From contig CAMWWH010000001.1 in assembly GCA_947177975.1 (NCBI GenBank), forward strand, positions 1 through 52,339: 52,339 bases of DNA. The letters run 5' to 3'. The DNA comes from an uncultured Clostridia bacterium. GTDB lineage: Bacteria > Bacillota > Clostridia > Christensenellales > Borkfalkiaceae. Positions 2,011-34,294 of this stretch are shown in pieces (the stretch's first letter is position 1; each line of letters begins with the position of its first letter). The position numbers and the translations under genes are program-made. Below the pieces are notes generated by a model. It was not told where the DNA came from. It searched no databases and was given only the letters and a program-made list of their open reading frames with translations.

Positions 2011-3251
2011 GTGAATTGACAACGATAGCTGCCGACAGATTTTGCGAATCTGTACGAGACGGCACTCACGATACGCCTAAACAGACGAATACGGGATACA
2101 AACTCGTTACAGGGAAACATATCAAGAATGGGCAAATTGACCCTACGGATGCTTATTTTATTTCTGAAAAAGATTATAAGAAAATAAATGAACGAAGCTT
2201 GGTGGAAAAATGGGATGTATTAATGTCCATGATTGGAACTGTTGGTGAAGTAGCAGTGGTTAAAGATACTCCCAATTATGCGATAAAAAATGTTGCGCTG
2301 TTCAAAATGGGAGGTTCTGAGTTAAAAGGTAAATGGCTTGCTTATTATCTTCAGACATCTAAAGCTCAAAGTCATATGTTTGGCAACATGAAAGGCTCCA
2401 GTCAGCAGTTCTTATCGCTAAAACAGCTTCGCGACCTGCCTGTGCCGATTGCTTCCGAAACTCAAATGAAACGGATCGTAGAAATCCTTTCCGCTTATGA
2501 TGACTTGATTGAAAACAATCAGAAGCAAATTAAGCTATTGGAAGAAGCGGCGCAACGGTTATATAAAGAATGGTTTATTGACCTTCGCTTCCCTGGTTAC
2601 GAGAATACCTTTTACAAAGATGGTATACCTGATGGGTGGAAAAAGAAAACTGTAGAAGAATGTTTATCACACTTTATAGGCGGAGGTTGGGGCAAAGACG
2701 CTCCCGTGGGGAAAAATATTATTATTGCAAAAGTAATCCGGGGTACAGATATAAATGATGTGAAATCAGGTGAATTTAAAAATTTACCTATTCGCTTTCA
2801 TTCAGAGCATAATTTAAAATGTCGCAAATTGAAAGAACATGATATAATTTTTGAGCTTTCCAATGGAAACATAAATAATATCGGGCGAACTCTTTTATTA
2901 GATAATAACCTGTTATCAACCATTGGAGAAAGTGTAATATGTGCAAGCTTTTGTAAACTTTTAAGACCCATCGATAGGTTACATTCCATCATTTTATATT
3001 GTGATATCAATTATATGCAAGCAAGCGCCAAACTATTGCCTTATAAAAAGCACGGTTCTAACGGTATAAACAATTTTGATTTTGACGGTTTTTTACAGCA
3101 TACAGTATTAGTCCCGGGAAAAGAGAGTTTAATAAATCCCATTTTCAAAATTTTGGAAAAAATTTGGAACGCTCAAAGTCAAATTGCGAAGTTATCGGAA
3201 GTTCGTGACCGCTTGCTTCCTAAACTCATGAACGCCGAATTGGAAGTCTAA
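2007..3251 (+). CDS. hsdS: Type I R-M specificity subunit HsdS
   Basis: ATGA overlap with the hsdM stop. Two variable target-recognition halves are separated by a conserved helical spacer (SAYDDLIENNQKQIKLLEEAAQRLYKEWF). The C-terminal helix is RDRLLPKLMNAELEV. The second TRD is very AT-rich. Confidence 0.9.
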   Translation: MSELTTIAADRFCESVRDGTHDTPKQTNTGYKLVTGKHIKNGQIDPTDAYFISEKDYKKINERSLVEKWDVLMSMIGTVGEVAVVKDTPNYAIKNVALFKMGGSELKGKWLAYYLQTSKAQSHMFGNMKGSSQQFLSLKQLRDLPVPIASETQMKRIVEILSAYDDLIENNQKQIKLLEEAAQRLYKEWFIDLRFPGYENTFYKDGIPDGWKKKTVEECLSHFIGGGWGKDAPVGKNIIIAKVIRGTDINDVKSGEFKNLPIRFHSEHNLKCRKLKEHDIIFELSNGNINNIGRTLLLDNNLLSTIGESVICASFCKLLRPIDRLHSIILYCDINYMQASAKLLPYKKHGSNGINNFDFDGFLQHTVLVPGKESLINPIFKILEKIWNAQSQIAKLSEVRDRLLPKLMNAELEV

Positions 3252-24181: not shown

Positions 24182-27127
24182 ATGAAAAAGACAAAGAGAG
24201 CGTTGCTTACGGCAATTGCATGTTCGGCGGCGCTTGCCGCAGCATTCGGACTTGCCGCATGTAACGGAGACAACGGCGGCGACGAAGGCGTGACACCCCC
24301 GCCCGCGCACGATCACAATTATGTGAATTGGCAGAGCAACGGTGACGGAACTCACACGGGTACTTGCAACAACACTGTAGGCACTTGCGACAAACAGACC
24401 GAGACCGAAGATTGCGACGAGTTGGGCAAAGACGGAGTGGACGGAGCTTGCTCGAAGTGCGGCTACAAAGAAGAAGACAGAACGGCTACCGTTGCTCTCG
24501 GCACGGATAAGGCTGTTGCAAGCCTTGATACGACGGGCTTGACGTTAACCTTAGAGGGCGTAGAGGCGGGCACGTCATACACGCTGTCGTGCACGAACGA
24601 CAAGGTTAAATTTATCGTCGGCACAGAGCAAGGCAACCCCGTAGATTTCGTATACAATAAGTTCCTTAATATATACGTAATATCGACCGAGGGGACTCTT
24701 ACAAACGTGACCTTAAAGCTTGAAGAAACGCCCGAGCCCGAGTTTGCGGCAATTTCTTTGAACGATGAAGTAACGGTTGAGGGCGCGAGTGAATTTGAAC
24801 CCGTGAAGTACGAAATCGAGCTTGCTCAGGGTCAGTATCAGATATTTATCGACGGAGAGGCGATAACCCTCGATATGTCGGCGCCCGTCGGAATAGGCGT
24901 TTACGTAGAAGGTCAGTTCGAATATCTTAACAATATCGACGAAATAACCGTCGAAGTGGGCGAGGGAAAGTATTATATCGAGGCGTACGATAACGTTACC
25001 TTTAAGGTTGCCGTAGCTTCCGTGCATACTCACGTCTGGAGTTGGGAAGTAACGGATACTCCCACGGCGGAAGGAACGGGTACTGCCACGAGAACGTGTG
25101 CGGGCACCGTAGGTGAATGCGGCTGGGAAGAAGATGATTTGTCGGTTGAATTGCCTGCGCTCGACGACGAGGAGTATACCGTCGGCAAGGACAGCGCAAC
25201 CTGTGAGGCTGCGGGCACGCAAACTTACAGTATAACTAAAGACGGCAAGGTCGTAACATTCGAAATAGATACGCCGCAAAAAACGATGGAGTTGACTAAG
25301 GTTACCTCGGGTTTAACCGGAAGTATATCTCTTCCTTCGGGAAGCTCTATTTCGCTGACAACCGTATCACATTACAAGTGCAATGGATGCGGTAAGACTT
25401 TCCATCAGTATGGTAGCTTAGCCGACGAAGCAAGACACACGGAAGAGAACGAAATCACTATTCTCACAAAAGCCAGTAGCAATATATCTGTCGGAAGTTC
25501 AACGACTTTTAACGGACCCGTGCGGTTGGGCGACAACAGAGTATATATATCCACCAAGGGCGGCGTTTTATTTAAAGCCGAAGAGGACGGTGTTTATAAA
25601 TTCAGTTCCGAAAACGCAACAAAGCTGTTTGGATTAATTTATTACGGCACAACCGAATCTGGTACTACTCCTTCAATAGTTTACAAATCAGGCACCACCT
25701 TAGATAATACCGCAAAACAGTATAGCAGATTTAACTATACAAGTTTCACGGACACGACCGTTTACGTAAGAATGAATGCGGGCGACGTAGTGGGTGTAGC
25801 ATATAATGCCAGCGTGAAGGCAGTCGACGTTAACGTTGAAAAGATTACCGACACCAGCACGCTTGATTGCTATGCGCATTCCGAGGCGTACGACGTTTCA
25901 GGCTTTGACGTAAACGGCGGCACCTTTAAATATCAGTGTGCTCTGTGCGGCAAGGAAGCAGACGGATTAGATAGCAAAAAACCTATAGTCTATACGAGTG
26001 GCGCAGTCGTTAATGAAGCTAACGAAAGTTCGCCCGTAGCTATTACGGAAAATACTTTGGCCGTTAAAACGAGCGTTGCTACGGGTACGTATTATTCGTT
26101 CACCCCGAGTGAGGCAAAGGATTACGAAATCACGTTCGATACCGTCCTTGTCGGAAATACGCTTACATTGAAGGGCATTAAGTGCGGCGACAACACGGCG
26201 GCGTCTTACGATACCGCGTTGACCGTCAACTCTGCGTTCAGAAGTATTATCTATGTTGAAAGAAGTGCAACCGGCACGATTGTAACCCTTAAAATCTCTG
26301 CAGATAACGTCGGAAAGCCGTTCACGTTCAACTTTGACGTGGCAGGCGCAAGTGAGGATAGCCCCGCATATCTGACGAGCGTAGTAAAATCTGACTTGCC
26401 TAAATTCATCGGCGAAGGCGAGAGCACGGTAAATATTGCCGCGGCGTATGAATTCTCCGAAAATTACTACTTCGTTTCGGCAGAGGGCGGCAAGTTCTCG
26501 TTAACCGTTCCCGAAGGCGTTGAAGTGCTTATGAACGGCGGTGAATTTATAACGGATGACGGTTCGCGTGCGGCTAACTTCACTGTTTCTGCCGGCGTAA
26601 GAATCGGATTCACGTTTAAACACAGCGGCGGTTCTACTGGTGATATAACCGTTACCGTAGGTGAGCCCGTTGAAGAAACTTTGCCGACCGTTACTACCGA
26701 GGGAACCACGATAGTAACTCTTCCTGTAAAGTCGGGTATGACAGGCGACTTTGTCGGAGCCGTTGGGCTTGCTCAGGTTGGTGCGATCAAGTCCGGCAAG
26801 TACACGTTGACCGTTAAGATGAGCCCGATTTTAAGCGGTTGCTATATTGCTTTTGCAAAGGGTCAAGATGAAGTTACCTATTTCGATTTCTTTGATAATA
26901 CCGGTAACGTTAGGACGGACGAGGATGCGGCGACGGAAGCTTACGTTCTTACGGTAGATTACTCTACCGCAACTGTAGAAGGCGTGGATTATACGGTTAC
27001 CGGTGACGTAAGAACCGTCACTTGGACGATAACGCTTGATTTGGCGGAAGGTGACATCTTAGTGTTTGCAAACGGCGGTTTATCTAAAGGAGATATTACT
27101 TTGTCTTTGGCAACAGTATCAGAATAA
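24182..27127 (+). CDS. Large surface lipoprotein with Cys-rich modules and repeated beta-sandwich-like segments, function unknown
   Basis: Lipobox LAAC. Strong SD AAGGAG. Four Cys-containing modules, for example [36 protein letters not shown]-x-Y-x-hydrophobic signature recurs. Confidence 0.8.
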
Positions 27128-30164: not shown

Positions 30165-31514
30165 TTACTTAATATTGATTTCTTTGTCGGTAGGTATGTG
30201 GTCGGTCATTTTGCCCGAAAGGTACTCGTCGTAAGCCTTCATATCGAAGTAGCCCGTGCCGGTAAGTCCGAACACGATTACTTTCTTTTCGCCCGTCTTT
30301 TTGCACTCCAAGGCGGCGTCAATAGCGCCCTTTATCGCGTGCGACGATTCGGGTGCGGGCAGAGTGCCCTCTATGCGTGCAAACGTCACCGCCGCGTCGA
30401 ATACTTCCGTCTGCGCGTACGATTTCGCCGTCATCAATCCGTCGTCGTACAGCTTGGAAAGAACGGGGCTCATACCGTGATAGCGAAGCCCGCCCGCGTG
30501 GTTGGCGCTCGGCATAAAGTCGCAGCCGAGAGTGTACATCTTTGCCTGAGGGCAAATTTTGCCCGTGTCGCAGAAATCGTAGCGGTACTCGCCTCGGGTT
30601 AAAGAGGGGCAGCTTGCGGGCTCTACGGCGATAATCTGCGGGTTGGATTTGCCTTGCAGCTTATCCGCCATAAACGGCGCAATCAGTCCGCCGAGGTTGG
30701 AGCCGCCGCCCGCGCAACCGACGATAATATCGGGCGTTCTGCCTATCTTGTCGAGCGCAGTCTTGGTTTCGAGTCCTATAACCGACTGGTGCAGGAGCAC
30801 CTGGTCGAGAACCGAGCCCAAAACGTAGCGCGTCTTGTGTTCGGGGTCGGAAACAGCCGCCTCGACCGCCTCGGAAATGGCACAGCCGAGCGAGCCGAGA
30901 GTGTCGGGGTGCTCTTTTAAAATTCGTCTGCCCGCCTCGGTCGTCGTGGAGGGGGAAGGGATAACGCTCGCGCCGTATACGTTCATAACGTTGCGCCTGA
31001 ACGGTTTTTGCTCGAACGAAACCTTGACCATATACACGTGCACGGGCATACCGAAGTACGCGCCCGCCATTGCAAGTGCAGTGCCCCACTGACCCGCGCC
31101 CGTCTCGGTTGTAACCGCTTTCAGGCCCTGCGCCTTGGCGTAGTAAATCTGCGCGGCGGCGGAGTTGAGCTTATGCGAGCCCGACGTGTTGTTGCCCTCG
31201 AACTTGTAATAAATTTCGGCGGGGGTGTCCAGATACTTTTCCAAGCCGTACGCACGCACCAAAGGACTGGGGCGGTAGAGCTTGTAAAAGTCGGTGATGG
31301 GCTTGGGGATATCTATGTACTCGTCCGTGCAGTTAAGCTCCTGTTCGGCAAGCTCCTCGCAGAAAACTGCGCAAAGCTCTTCCTTGGTGCACGGCTGTTT
31401 GGTCGCGGGGTTTATAAGGGGAGCAGGCTTATCCTTCATAAACGCTTTAAGGTTGAGCCACTTTTTCGGTAACTCCTCTTCGGTCAGGTATACTTTGTAG
31501 GGTACGTCTTTCAT
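30165..31514 (-). CDS. trpB: TrpB2-type tryptophan synthase beta-like PLP enzyme
   Basis: 449 aa with the long N-terminus typical of TrpB2. The PLP lysine motif is SGSHKLNSA, and GGGSN and ETGAGQWG are present. No trpA or other trp genes are nearby. Confidence 0.85.
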   Translation of the reverse strand: MKDVPYKVYLTEEELPKKWLNLKAFMKDKPAPLINPATKQPCTKEELCAVFCEELAEQELNCTDEYIDIPKPITDFYKLYRPSPLVRAYGLEKYLDTPAEIYYKFEGNNTSGSHKLNSAAAQIYYAKAQGLKAVTTETGAGQWGTALAMAGAYFGMPVHVYMVKVSFEQKPFRRNVMNVYGASVIPSPSTTTEAGRRILKEHPDTLGSLGCAISEAVEAAVSDPEHKTRYVLGSVLDQVLLHQSVIGLETKTALDKIGRTPDIIVGCAGGGSNLGGLIAPFMADKLQGKSNPQIIAVEPASCPSLTRGEYRYDFCDTGKICPQAKMYTLGCDFMPSANHAGGLRYHGMSPVLSKLYDDGLMTAKSYAQTEVFDAAVTFARIEGTLPAPESSHAIKGAIDAALECKKTGEKKVIVFGLTGTGYFDMKAYDEYLSGKMTDHIPTDKEINIK

Positions 31515-31552
31515 GGTTTCTCCTCCTTTGAATAAATGTTAAAATTGCATTG

Positions 31553-31581
31553 ATTATATTATATAATTATTAGTTTGTCAA
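31553..31581 (-). promoter_or_regulatory. Consensus promoter TTGACA-17-TATAAT for trpB2 (minus strand)
   Basis: On the minus strand, TTGACA is at 31581-31576 and TATAAT is at 31558-31553. Only about 35 nt of leader precede SD AAGGAGGAG. Confidence 0.6.
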
Positions 31582-31684
31582 TGGATTTTCTGTATATTTT
31601 TAAACTATTATGCAATTTTTTGCAAATTCATTTATATTTATTCATTTTTCGCGTAGTATGCGCAAAAATACGGTTTGCAAAGGA

Positions 31685-31970
31685 GCGCGGGTAGTCAACC
31701 TCAGTAGATACATTTTGACGGGCAAATCTCGGTTTAAACACTCAAAGCGTCACTCAACGTGCCACGCGGCACGCCCTCGTGCCGTTTTGTGCATTTATCC
31801 TCGAAGATTTGCCACGTCAAAACGCTTCGCGCCTGAAATTGATTGTTTTTAGACTATTGCAAGGCGAACGAGTGAAGGCGTAGTAGGTGCTACGGCAAGC
31901 GAGTTCAACGCAGATAGAGGCAAAAATAATCAATTTCAGGTGTATCGGTTGGGATTGACTACCCGCGTGG
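31685..31970 (+). ncRNA. Candidate structured RNA (GH3 leader) or MITE-like nested inverted-repeat element
   Basis: Outer helix 31685-31712 / 31941-31968 encloses two long hairpin arms: 31713-31729 / 31805-31822 and 31832-31850 / 31922-31940. Five non-Watson-Crick positions are G-U only on the + strand. Confidence 0.35.
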
Positions 31971-31990
31971 ATAGTGATAAAATAAATCCG

Positions 31991-34294
31991 ATGAATGTTA
32001 AGGACGCGATAAGACAACTCGATATTGAAAAGAAGGCGAGGCTTTTAACGGGCGAGGGCTTTTGGAGCACGCGCGAGTGTTCGGAAATAGGTCTCGCTGC
32101 GGTCAAACTTTCCGACGGTCCCAACGGTATGCGCGTGCAGGAAAAGCGCCCCAACCATTTGGGACTGGGCGGCTCGCTTCCCGCAACTTGCTATCCGACC
32201 GCGTCGGCAACTGCGTGCACGTTTAACCCCGAGCTCTGCGAAGAGTTGGGCGCGCACATAGGAAAAGAGGCGGCGGCTCTGGGCGTTTCTATGGTACTCG
32301 GACCGGGGCTGAATATTAAGCGCAGTCCGCTGTGCGGAAGAAATTTCGAGTACTTTTCGGAGGACAGCTATCTTTCGGGCAAGATTGCTGCGGCTTACGT
32401 AAGGGGCATACAGAGCACGGGCGTCACCGCGTGTATAAAGCATTTTGCCGTCAATAGTCGCGAGTTTGCGCGCATGTACTGCGATAGCCGCGTGGACGAA
32501 CAGACGCTGCGCGAAGTCTATCTCACGGGCTTCGAAATCGCCGTCAAAGAGGGCGGGGCGAACGCGGTGATGACTGCGTACAACTTTCTCAACGGCGAGC
32601 ACTGCAATCAGAATACGTATCTTTTAAACACGGTGCTTCGCGGCGAGTGGGGCTTCGACGGTCTGGTCGTTTCCGACTGGGGCGGCAGCCGCGGGCAGGT
32701 GCAGGCTATCAAGGCGGGCGCCGACTTGGAGATGCCTATGTGCGACATATCCGCCGCGGAGGTCGTGTCGGCGGTTAAAAGCGGCGAGTTGGACGAGCGT
32801 CTGGTGGACAAGTGCGTGGAAAGGCTCGCGGAGTTTTCCGCGCGTTCTCAAACTATTTCAAGGGATAGTTACGATTTAATCGAGCACGCGGAATTTGCCG
32901 CAAAGGTTGCCGCAGAGAGCCTTGTGCTTTTGAAAAACGAGGGCGGAGCACTGCCCTTAAAGGCGGACGAGAAGGTTGCCGTAATAGGCGATTTCGCCGC
33001 AAATCCGCGCTATCAGGGGGCGGGCTCTTCGCAGATAGTTCCCACTTCGTTGGACAATATATTGGGGGTAATCGATAATTCGCCCTTTAAAATCGTCGGT
33101 TTTGAGCGCGGTTTTCACCGTTTCGGCAAAAAGAGCAACCGTCTTTTGCGCCGCGCCGTAAAGCTTGCGGAAAGGGCTGACACGCTCGTCGTATGCCTCG
33201 GTCTTGACGAGAATTCGGAGAGCGAGGGGTGCGACCGCACCCATTTGAATATCAATGAAAATCAAGTCGAATTATTAAAGGCTTTACACTCGCTCGGCAA
33301 AAAGACTGTCGTCGTTCTGTCCTGCGGGAGCGCGGTTTTGACGGACTGGGATTGCTATTGCGACGGGCTGTTGCTTGCGCACCTCGGCGGGCAGAGCGGC
33401 GCGCGTGCAGTGGTTGCCGCGCTGTGGGGCTGGGATAATCCGTCGGGCAGACTTGCCGAAACATACCCTTTAAAACAGGGCGGCGAGCCGTGCGCGGACG
33501 TCTATTCGGACAGCCCGTTTAAGAGTGATTACGGCGAGGGCATTTTCGTCGGATATAAATATTACAACGCTTTGAACGTGCCCGTAAAATATCCGTTCGG
33601 TTACGGCTTGTCCTACACGACTTTTAGCTACGACAATTTTTCTGTGAGTGAAGAGGGCGCTCGGTGCACGGTTACCAACACGGGAAGCCGCAAGGGCGCG
33701 GCGGTGGTGCAGGTCTACGTTAAAGCGCCCCGACCCGAACTCGAAGTCAGTCCGTCCGAACTGAAAGCTTTTTCAAAAGTATTTTTAAATGCGGGGGAAA
33801 GCAAAGAGGTGTTTTTACCCTTCGACGGATACGCTTTCCGCGTGTGGGATATAAATACTCACGGCTTTGTTTCGGGCGGCGCATACGAGGTGACAATCAA
33901 CACGGACAGTGCGCACGCGCTGTATTCTCAGACCGTGGAAATTGCGGGTATAAGGTGCGAAGATTGTCCGAAATTGAGCTATGAAAAATACTTTAATAGC
34001 CACATATCCCCCAACGAACGCGTTTGCAAGCCCGAAAAGGGTATGATAGCGGATATGGATACGGTGGTTGCCGACCTCGTTTACTGCAAGGGTTTGGTTG
34101 CGAAAATTTTCGGGCGGGTAGCGATAGCAAGCAACAAATCGAAAAATAAACTCAAGTCCGTACTGATGTCCTGGCTGCGGGTTAGGTCGCTTATGCAGTT
34201 TATGAATTTGAACGATATTCAGGCGCAGGGATTTTTGCTTGCGTGCAACGGTCATTTCTTTAAAGGGATGAAGAAGCTGCTATTTAAAAAATAA
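31991..34294 (+). CDS. Glycoside hydrolase family 3 (beta-glucosidase/beta-xylosidase-like) with FnIII-like domain and C-terminal tail
   Basis: MNVKDAIRQLDIEKKARLLTGEGFWS is a typical GH3 start. KHFAVNSRE and GLVVSDWGG (nucleophile Asp) are present. The ORF opens at GTG 31940. The start is uncertain because the SD is weak. Confidence 0.88.
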   Translation: MNVKDAIRQLDIEKKARLLTGEGFWSTRECSEIGLAAVKLSDGPNGMRVQEKRPNHLGLGGSLPATCYPTASATACTFNPELCEELGAHIGKEAAALGVSMVLGPGLNIKRSPLCGRNFEYFSEDSYLSGKIAAAYVRGIQSTGVTACIKHFAVNSREFARMYCDSRVDEQTLREVYLTGFEIAVKEGGANAVMTAYNFLNGEHCNQNTYLLNTVLRGEWGFDGLVVSDWGGSRGQVQAIKAGADLEMPMCDISAAEVVSAVKSGELDERLVDKCVERLAEFSARSQTISRDSYDLIEHAEFAAKVAAESLVLLKNEGGALPLKADEKVAVIGDFAANPRYQGAGSSQIVPTSLDNILGVIDNSPFKIVGFERGFHRFGKKSNRLLRRAVKLAERADTLVVCLGLDENSESEGCDRTHLNINENQVELLKALHSLGKKTVVVLSCGSAVLTDWDCYCDGLLLAHLGGQSGARAVVAALWGWDNPSGRLAETYPLKQGGEPCADVYSDSPFKSDYGEGIFVGYKYYNALNVPVKYPFGYGLSYTTFSYDNFSVSEEGARCTVTNTGSRKGAAVVQVYVKAPRPELEVSPSELKAFSKVFLNAGESKEVFLPFDGYAFRVWDINTHGFVSGGAYEVTINTDSAHALYSQTVEIAGIRCEDCPKLSYEKYFNSHISPNERVCKPEKGMIADMDTVVADLVYCKGLVAKIFGRVAIASNKSKNKLKSVLMSWLRVRSLMQFMNLNDIQAQGFLLACNGHFFKGMKKLLFKK

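Follow-up and report, generated by a model that had tools for sequence, protein, structure and literature searches.

A hairpin-forming repeat inserted upstream of a Clostridia β-glucosidase gene is probably a non-autonomous mobile element of a cross-phylum family

Main

Why does a long, almost perfectly self-complementary sequence lie directly in front of a β-glucosidase gene? The locus belongs to an uncultured Clostridia bacterium and lies in a 52,339-nt stretch of DNA (assembly GCA_947177975.1, contig CAMWWH010000001.1, positions 1–52,339; hereafter the window), which encodes SpoIVA, NusG, L11 and L1, as expected of a sporulating Clostridia genome. There, a nest of inverted repeats of about 285 nt occupies the divergent spacer between a PALP gene (TrpB-like; 30165–31514, minus strand) and a GH3 β-glucosidase gene. 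The original prediction, made by reading the letters of the window, saw a possible cis-regulatory leader RNA of the GH3 gene, and named an element resembling a MITE (a miniature transposable element with inverted repeats) or a retron as alternatives; dispersed copies were taken to point to a MITE.

Here we show that the structure is an insertion relative to orthologous loci, that related copies stand at unrelated loci and that the family is multi-copy. The element is very probably a copy of a non-autonomous, hairpin-structured interspersed repeat without an open reading frame (ORF), similar to MITEs and to REPINs (hairpin-forming doublets of repetitive extragenic palindromic (REP) sequences), and its family crosses phylum boundaries. 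The MITE-like alternative was therefore right in kind, as both insertion polymorphism and dispersed copies attest.

Results

The element is inserted within a GH3 promoter

The gene order PALP, GH3, hydrolase, esterase and ATP-grasp protein is kept in relatives with a GH3 75–88% identical to that of the window. At the loci L001–L004, L005, L009, L012 and L218 (L-numbers label the loci compared in this analysis), the PALP–GH3 spacer is only ~200 nt long and contains no element. These empty sites read ...GGTTTGCAA-(17 nt)-TAAAAT-(7–17 nt)-ATG, with TAGAAT in L012, and we read TTGCAA-17-TAAAAT as a sigma-70-type promoter. The flanks of the window align with the empty sites up to the ends of the element, ...acggTTTGCAAaggag[CGCGGG...CCCGCG]tggatagtgaTAAAATaaatccgATG, which places the element inside the 17-nt promoter spacer. 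The whole insertion measures 282 nt, from C31686 to G31967 (31686–31967, plus strand), as delimited by the empty orthologous sites L001, L005, L009, L012 and L218, by the ends it has in common with a second copy (L202, below) and by its fold. Because the terminal CG dinucleotides are palindromic, this boundary is uncertain by ±2 nt, the alternative being an element of 278 nt with a 2-bp duplication, CG/CG, at its flanks. When 31688–31965 are deleted together with one CG of the flanking pair, the 17-nt spacer is restored, and the comparison of the filled window site with the empty sites fits a 2-bp (CG) duplication or none.

The ancestral −35 box TTGCAA (31675–31680, plus strand) is recognizable from its position 17 nt from TAAAAT or TAGAAT in L001, L005, L009, L012, L218, L006 and L219. 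In the window it now stands 297 nt from the −10 box, displaced by 280 bp together with any operator upstream of it. The resident −10 box TAAAAT (31978–31983, plus strand) is conserved in orthologues and follows a TG at 31975–31976. Close to its right end, the element carries a −35-like hexamer, TTGACT (31955–31960, plus strand), 17 nt before TAAAAT. We propose that insertion split the ancestral TTGCAA-17-TAAAAT and that TTGACT of the element would serve as −35 box at the right 17-nt spacing. With the upstream TG, TTGACT-17-TAAAAT is a predicted hybrid promoter (10/12 matches in a promoter scan), which most likely keeps GH3 expressed; GH3 would still be transcribed from it, with the element upstream of the transcript and not within it. 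The TTGACT feature is absent from every other copy with the layout of the window element (type 3, below).

These positions bear on whether the element is a dedicated leader RNA, such as a riboswitch or an antiterminator target, in the 5′ untranslated region of GH3. It stands immediately before GH3 in the same orientation, its fold is very stable, and its long helices have G-U and not A-C on the plus strand; several type-3 copies stand 20–50 nt upstream of a co-oriented start codon, and a weak plus-strand promoter-like site (31539–31567) precedes the element. However, six orthologous GH3 loci lack the element and retain an intact promoter. In the window, the −35 and −10 boxes lie on either side of it, and the GH3 start codon, ATG 31991, follows the −10 box by only 7 nt, so that transcription probably starts downstream of the element. 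Unless a promoter further upstream is used, the element cannot be the GH3 leader. Moreover, it shows no terminator, no helix sequestering a Shine–Dalgarno sequence and no Rfam match, its closest copy stands upstream of prs-pth, and the family has no gene association. The distance of 22 nt between the 3′ end of the outer helix and ATG 31991 was correctly given in the original prediction, but the leader proposed from it fails on orthologue conservation, promoter position and gene association alike, and we consider such a role exceedingly unlikely.

A paralogue and a second insertion at the same locus

A near-identical copy of the window subfamily (L202) stands upstream of prs-pth in the same metagenome-assembled genome (MAG; CAYXTN01) as the empty GH3 site L001. 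The changes in the outer helix between the window and L202 are compensatory, and the two have their element ends in common. Together with the multi-copy family described below, this copy supplies the dispersed occurrences that had been named as the sign of a MITE.

In a sister lineage (L006 and L010; GH3 83–85% identical to that of the window), the same spacer holds a 281-nt element of the same architecture as that of the window but only ~50% sequence identity, which ends 5 nt upstream of an intact TTGCAA-17-TAAAAT promoter. By sequence comparison, this is a second insertion, independent of that in the window and ~20 bp away from it. The window and L006 elements have short unpaired motifs in common, whereas their helix sequences differ. 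Between L006 and L010 the element is 97–98% identical, compared with 80–94% for its flanks. The locus in L219 and L220 belongs to the L006 clade, with a common promoter and a T-box-like sequence upstream of PALP. R1, a covariance model built from arm B (described below), detects no module in either L219 or L220. At the site matching the L006 insertion, the L219 spacer reads ...gtaaaaaTAcgtgTTGCAA (a TA), and the pair L006–L219 appears to fit insertion at TA, or a 2-bp TA duplication.

As a separate observation, the PALP (TrpB-like) gene of L006 is preceded by a T-box leader (2317–2558, minus strand; 84.6 bits, E = 9e-19, under the Rfam gathering score of 93), and inspection by eye shows the same sequence in L010 and L219, near-identical in the latter. 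The T-box is absent in the window, L001, L005 and L009, where the PALP gene has an upstream region of only ~50 nt.

The window element folds into two arms on a closing helix

The three long helices of the window element lie where they were first drawn, with exactly the pair counts then given. The outer helix joins the left terminal inverted repeat (31685–31712, plus strand) to the right one (31941–31968, plus strand) over 28 positions, comprising 22 Watson–Crick pairs, 4 G-T pairs and 2 mismatches, and contains a perfect 13-mer (CGCGGGTAGTCAA/TTGACTACCCGCG). Arm A (31713–31822, plus strand) is a 110-nt hairpin that differs between subfamilies; its stem pairs 31713–31729 with 31805–31822 (17 bp, one extra base on the 3′ side). 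Arm B (31832–31940, plus strand) is a 109-nt hairpin bearing the conserved module of the family (R1 match at 31849–31932, 65.2 bits, E = 1e-18), and its stem pairs 31832–31850 with 31922–31940 (18 Watson–Crick pairs and one G-T). Between the arms lies a 3-bp mini-hairpin, CGCTTCGCG (31823–31831, plus strand), a position at which other subfamilies have CGCAAAGCG, TGCTACGCA or CCCGAAGGG. Owing to this mini-hairpin, the junction described as three-way is formally four-way, although its three helices stand.

The minimum free energy (MFE) of the plus strand is −129.9 kcal/mol, compared with −83.8 ± 4.6 kcal/mol for 200 dinucleotide shuffles (z = −10; 0/200), a fold well beyond chance. The minus strand is nearly as stable (−122.7 kcal/mol, z = −9.4). 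On the plus strand, the three long helices contain five G-T and zero A-C, and in the whole-element MFE structures the strands are nearly equal, with 7 versus 8 G-U pairs. The 282 nt are crossed by spurious ORFs only and have no coding capacity. In Rfam 15, the element has no match at the gathering score or at E ≤ 10 beyond generic miRNA-hairpin noise, which bears out the earlier failure to recognize a family by eye.

A conserved tip on rods of fixed length

The tip of arm B carries the family's invariant core. In the window (31860–31913, plus strand) it reads CAAGGCG-[7-nt helix]-GA-AGGCGTAG-loop-CTACGGCAA-[7-nt helix]-CAACGCAG. The family core is CAAGGCG-[7-bp helix H1]-RM-AGGCGUAN-loop-N′UACGKCAA-[H1′]-CAACGCAG on a variable stem, which can be shortened to CAAGGCG-H1-AGGCGUA..UACGKCAA-H1′-CAACGCAG. 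Across 45 non-redundant copies from many phyla, 24 columns are invariant; the invariant unpaired nucleotides of the ~85-nt module are three CAA motifs, AAGGCG/AGGCG and CGCAG. The stems, by contrast with these loops, covary, as the original prediction had asked of homologues: 84.7% of cells are paired, against 28–41% with the partners shifted by one, two or three columns, and the covariation score is 0.508, against at most 0.153 in the shifted controls, with 0/500 shuffles reaching 0.508. Double compensatory changes occur in 7/7 pairs of H1 and 8/9 pairs of the lower stem. This covariation is incompatible with coding. A G-U pair of the inner hairpin is kept in 30/45 copies, and U-G pairs far outnumber A-C.

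The module is embedded in a rod with stems of variable sequence and fixed length, and three layouts occur. Type 1 elements are monomer rods of ~165 nt (Paenibacillus, Lachnospiraceae, Nitrosomonas and a deltaproteobacterial MAG). Type 2 elements (~270 nt) consist of arm B, a mini-hairpin (CCCGAAGGG) and a second arm, and type 3 elements (~281 nt; Clostridia, including the window) of arm A, a mini-hairpin and arm B. Core-to-end distances are fixed at −72/+55, −190/+53 or −71/+160. R1 places the second arm of type 2 on the opposite strand with up to 50 bits, and arm A of L211 likewise with 29 bits. Such adjacent opposite-strand modules identify types 2 and 3 as head-to-head and tail-to-tail inverted dimers of ~270–285 nt, enclosed by the terminal inverted-repeat helix. 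On this model, the window copy is a tail-to-tail dimer with a degenerate second module, arm A; R1 itself gives no support for window arm A as an inverted core module, which is too degenerate to score.

A terminal inverted repeat is present in all subfamilies and its position is constant, whereas its sequence is not: most copies have (C)TAG...CTA(G), the window and L202 have CGCGGG..., and another group in Clostridia has AGGCACAC.... Paenibacillus-type copies have the flanks YTA|element|TA-R, with C27/T5/G1 on the left (C 82%) and G14/A12 on the right (G 54%). No target-site duplication was seen in the L132 subfamily (AGGCACAC...GTGTGCCT).

The family is multi-copy and reaches at least eight phyla

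A pattern taken from the tip of arm B, AGGCGTA-N6-10-TACGNCAA-N5-9-CAACGCAG, matched 88 loci in a one-genome-per-species set of bacteria, where ~2 would be expected by our own arithmetic, and 111 loci in metagenomes. The same strict pattern gave 0 matches in 2.9 million viral contigs; matches to a looser core pattern there (L013–L129) were coding-sequence coincidences only and were discarded. BLASTN gave no match for the window element among plasmids and phages, nor for a gammaproteobacterial copy among Escherichia coli genomes and plasmids. Searching Rfam 15 with the module from 18 other family loci and with two representative elements yielded miRNA-hairpin noise only.

Hosts fall into at least eight phyla. 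Among Firmicutes they include Clostridia (Coproplasma, Oscillospiraceae, Lachnospiraceae), Negativicutes, Paenibacillus and Cohnella; among Actinobacteria, Bifidobacterium; and among Gamma- and Betaproteobacteria, Marinobacterium, Alcanivorax, Thiomicrospira, Granulosicoccus and Nitrosomonas. Further copies occur in Deltaproteobacteria, Planctomycetota, Elusimicrobia and Spirochaetes. Cultured hosts are Paenibacillus montaniterrae, P. cellulosilyticus, Cohnella soli, Marinobacterium species and Bifidobacterium tissieri. One deltaproteobacterial MAG holds 13 loci (several at contig ends), P. montaniterrae 6, and a single assembly, Ga0160502, at least 30 contigs with copies. Three Marinobacterium species have two copies each, at non-orthologous sites, and a fourth has one locus.

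Copies neighbour prs-pth, ribosomal-protein genes, nusG, ABC transporters and others. Beside ~200 family loci we found no recurrent neighbouring ORF or protein family, no long-range terminal or inverted repeats enclosing an ORF and, within the fetched flanks, no recurring transposase.

Several observations on individual copies accompany this survey. R1 finds further divergent copies a few kb away from known ones (L150 5016–5098, L164 7309–7390, L133 2300–2383, L194 7840–7923 and L205 1499–1581), so that scans with the exact pattern undercount the family. In B. tissieri (L192, 4773–4958), the module forms a 102-nt tandem repeat of 1.8 copies that are 94% identical. Minimal modules lacking the outer helix stand at the S14|S8 junction (L208, L223, L229, L299, L307, L330), at the S13|S11 junction (L154, L209) and just after nusG (L222, L270, L301, L305, L328). 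These operon-embedded modules are antisense to the operon mRNA, and their hosts are Oscillospiraceae-like, Anaerovibrio, other Clostridia and a Bifidobacterium-like lineage. Their surroundings, and AACUCAGAAG in one subfamily, which we take to occur also in 5S rRNA, raised the idea of rRNA mimicry; R1 has no match in the rrnB operon of E. coli, and we rejected this idea.

In the deltaproteobacterial MAG Meg19_02_Bin_79 (L160, L165, L193, L199), several copies have left-half deletions with a right breakpoint always a few nt from the 5′ foot of the core (..AGATCAAGGCG), and three contigs start exactly at that foot, which suggests a recurrent break or slippage point. These 5′ deletions are internal, and at least one copy (L199) keeps its left terminus. 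L212 contains the palindrome GTTTTCAGGCAGCCTGAAAAC at least six times in the ~2.4 kb to either side of a weak and probably fortuitous core match, and may be a CRISPR-like or REP-like array. Finally, an Elusimicrobia MAG has a group I intron (L136, 3007–3215, minus strand; Rfam, 82.6 bits) ~0.7 kb from a family copy and probably unrelated to it.

Selection acts on the fold of one strand

The folds of monomers favour the strand reading CAAGGCG...CAACGCAG, for example with −99 versus −77 kcal/mol and 6–8 versus 1–3 G-U pairs, and this plus strand is the more stable in 25/35 non-redundant elements (Wilcoxon p = 0.001). In dimers, the two strands are about equally stable, in keeping with two opposed modules. 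The asymmetry of the monomers implies that selection sees a single-stranded form of one strand: the fold is under selection on the strand reading CAAGGCG...CAACGCAG. The earlier argument from G-U pairs, built on the window alone, thus holds for the arm-B module throughout the family, although it is no proof of transcription together with GH3. Relative to neighbouring genes, orientation is near random (30 versus 22). Relative to local GC skew, there is no convincing replication-strand bias, either across genomes (23 versus 21) or in Ga0160502 (7 versus 17).

A selected single strand could be RNA. The family might be a non-coding RNA gene that moves as DNA while selection keeps the arm-B RNA, as a processed small RNA, a hairpin binding RNase III or another protein, or an unrecognized ribozyme. 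Such a gene would account for invariant unpaired nucleotides beside heavily covarying stems, for the G-U wobble and the excess of U-G over A-C, and for the strong plus-strand folding advantage of monomers. The better conservation of the L006/L010 element than of its flanks, and the retention, in several genera, of minimal modules at set places within ribosomal-protein and nusG operons, point the same way. It sits less well with the lack of a conserved promoter or terminator inside the element, with the near-random gene orientation and with operon copies that are antisense to the mRNA, and neither an Rfam family nor rRNA mimicry was found. We regard a mobile RNA gene as possible, if doubtful. 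Bridge RNA and omega RNA were considered and rejected: no IS110 or TnpB gene is adjacent, and conserved loops with variable stems are the reverse of a guide RNA.

Candidate mechanisms of movement

As a repeat without coding capacity, the element would be moved in trans by an enzyme encoded elsewhere. Our tentative choice is a TA/YTAR-targeting DDE transposase of the IS630/Tc1-mariner kind, producing a 2-bp duplication, although we put it at somewhat under an even chance. A strand-specific mechanism on single-stranded DNA (HUH/RAYT-like; RAYT, REP-associated tyrosine transposase), reading the conserved loops, is a weaker candidate that we hold possible, and movement through an RNA intermediate appears improbable; some other process takes up the remainder.

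A more specific proposal is that an HUH/Y1 enzyme, RAYT or IS200/IS605-like, recognizes the folded top strand and its unpaired tags as single-stranded DNA. The fold is strand-specific and conserved unpaired motifs flank the hairpins; monomers and head-to-head or tail-to-tail inverted dimers coexist, as in REPs (PMC3733652). Clear target-site duplications are missing, the flanks are asymmetric (left C 82%, right G 54%), and the deletions in the deltaproteobacterial MAG have one breakpoint in common, which falls at the core's 5′ foot. On the other side, a phmmer search through 1.38 Mb of flanking DNA turned up no homologue of E. coli RayT, orientation shows no replication-strand bias (23 versus 21, and 7 versus 17 in Ga0160502), the module is 2–4 times the length of a REP, and the element ends pair with each other, unlike those of IS200/IS605. 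This form of the proposal seems to us rather unlikely.

Base-paired termini and a multi-arm fold also recall retron non-coding RNA, with the outer helix as a1/a2, the arms as msr and msd, and an RNA intermediate made by a reverse transcriptase. The plus-strand-specific fold, some 5′-deleted copies and the lack of a transposase in cis would suit a reverse-transcriptase-dependent element. No reverse transcriptase gene, however, lies beside the ~200 loci or in the neighbourhood within the window, the 5′ deletions are internal (L199 keeps its left terminus), and retrons are characterized neither by high copy number nor by TA-flanked ends. A retron-like element, as once suggested for this locus, is very unlikely.

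Comparison with known repeat families

Correia elements (Correia repeat enclosed elements, CREE) of Neisseria are ORF-less, multi-copy and TA-flanked, with no known cognate transposase; their ends can create promoters, and their RNA hairpins are handled by RNase III (PMC2649163, PMC2229807). The present family is likewise small, its conserved core enclosed by long terminal inverted repeats, and the window copy gives a −35 box at its end. It differs in size (165–285 nt versus 100–155 bp), in its range over many phyla rather than Neisseria only, in having a conserved tip with variable termini where CREE conserve their terminal repeats, and in occurring as monomers and inverted dimers.

REPs, REPINs and bacterial interspersed mosaic elements are hairpins with unpaired tags that occur singly or as inverted dimers, intergenically and in several phyla (PMC3733652, PMC3116915, PMC2817692). 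The present elements are also tagged hairpins, intergenic and plausibly transcribed, that come as monomers and as larger-folding inverted dimers. REPs, however, measure 20–40 nt and carry a GTAG or CGTC tag, whereas the present module has ~85 nt, internal loops and an extra enclosing helix, and its unpaired motifs are CAA, AAGGCG and CGCAG in place of the REP palindrome and tag. The inverted dimer that defines a REPIN is found at type-2 loci and in arm A of L211, through opposite-strand R1 matches. REPs are mobilized by RAYT enzymes, of which the phmmer search gave no homologue in the 1.38 Mb of flanks. Unlike IS200/IS605-derived palindrome-associated transposable elements (PATEs), which lack terminal inverted repeats, carry a subterminal hairpin at either end and are biased towards the lagging strand, the family has ends that pair together and no orientation bias with GC skew (23 versus 21; 7 versus 17).

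Bacterial MITEs derived from IS630/Tc1-mariner elements include RUP of Streptococcus pneumoniae and Nezha of cyanobacteria; they share terminal repeats with a resident insertion sequence (IS) and lack an interior conserved from phylum to phylum. TA-flanked ends, a YTAR/CTAG-like target, the lack of an ORF and filled and empty sites that fit a 2-bp duplication bring the present family close to them, while no matching IS was seen in the fetched flanks and two subfamilies lack TA ends. As in MITEs generally, the window element is short (282 nt, less than ~500 bp), has no coding capacity, is bounded by terminal inverted repeats and shows presence/absence polymorphism (empty in L001–L005, L009, L012 and L218; the sister subfamily empty in L219). 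Dispersed copies number 13, 6 and at least 30 per assembly in the family, and one in the 52 kb of the window. It departs from a classical MITE in four ways: a conserved tip with free termini, a fixed geometry, a strand-specific fold and the lack of a matching IS in the flanks seen.

Breaker-laboratory surveys list 'mobile/repeat sequence candidates', such as MRSC-65-2, which were judged selfish with the question of RNA or DNA left open (PMC11109978). Long covarying stems, many copies per genome and a spread over many phyla are common to both; MRSC-65-2, however, is a single stem with UYCCGG repeats, and the present signature is CAAGGCG / AGGCGUA / UACGKCAA / CAACGCAG. We found no description of the motif in the literature that was searched, the supplementary motif lists of the Breaker-laboratory surveys lying outside that search. 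The family is apparently undescribed and has no Rfam entry.

The GH3 start codon and neighbouring genes

The GH3 β-glucosidase gene (31991–34294, plus strand) encodes 767 aa with Pfam GH3 N-terminal, GH3 C-terminal and Fn3-like domains. Its named homologues come from MAGs of Clostridia or 'Candidatus Coproplasma'; several have 767 aa and the same start as ATG 31991, and the N-terminus MNVKDAIRQLDIEKKARLL aligns with orthologues. The gene caller's product (781 aa) begins at TTG 31949, within the right arm of the element. Homologues and the position of the promoter point to ATG 31991 as the true start and to the N-terminal extension of the 781-aa product as spurious, a consequence of the insertion. 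In the window and in the orthologues L001, L009 and L012, the −10 box lies 7 nt from the ATG without a Shine–Dalgarno sequence, and from this distance the GH3 mRNA of these lineages is probably leaderless or nearly so. L005 and L218 have GH3 leaders of 15–17 nt with a Shine–Dalgarno sequence.

Besides the PALP enzyme and GH3, the window neighbours are hydrolases and an ATP-grasp protein. Facing the PALP gene is a promoter that matches the consensus perfectly, TTGACA-17-TATAAT (31553–31581, minus strand); it overlaps an AT-rich palindrome, which also gives rise to the weaker plus-strand site at 31539–31567. An ORF of 981 aa (24182–27127), lying between nusG and the upstream genes, gave no Pfam match at E ≤ 0.001.

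Discussion

We interpret the structure upstream of GH3 as a copy of a mobile, hairpin-structured repeat, and several observations weigh against this interpretation. No autonomous partner or transposase was found in the fetched flanks, and we therefore infer mobilization in trans. The termini vary and the interior is conserved, a reversal of the classical MITE, in which the transposase reads the ends, and double-stranded cut-and-paste does not explain a strand-asymmetric fold with conserved G-U (30/45). The 52 kb of the window, the sole stretch of its own genome that was searched, hold no second copy. The TA or CG dinucleotides at the ends are palindromic and not separable, as a target-site duplication, from the end of the inverted repeat. 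The operon-embedded minimal copies may be domesticated, or else very old insertions, and the better conservation of the element than of its flanks in L006/L010 hints at a function, for host or element, beyond presence. At the GH3 locus itself, the activity of the hybrid promoter is a prediction from consensus.

A rather unlikely but unifying explanation is that the family represents a kind of selfish element not recognized before, and that the selected and recognized unit is a folded single strand, RNA or top-strand DNA, with an invariant loop pattern as the tip of a fixed-length rod. The tip would be read by a conserved enzyme that acts ~70 nt away, at the rod's base. Such a tip-reading enzyme would yield variable termini with constant geometry and tip from Firmicutes to Proteobacteria, Actinobacteria and Planctomycetota, together with the one-strand fold of monomers, the inverted dimers and the lack of a transposase with matching ends.

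For this genome, the GH3 start annotation should move from TTG 31949 to ATG 31991, and the structure in front of it is best seen as an insertion that would have rebuilt a promoter, not as a sugar-sensing RNA. For the family, the core pattern and the covariance model provide a searchable signature. The family reverses the usual MITE pattern, with its tip conserved and its ends variable, and is a source of false riboswitch and non-coding RNA calls in intergenic scans as well as a tractable case for how structured repeats spread. If the tip is indeed the handle of a new mobilization mechanism, or a functional RNA, the family would deserve considerably more attention.

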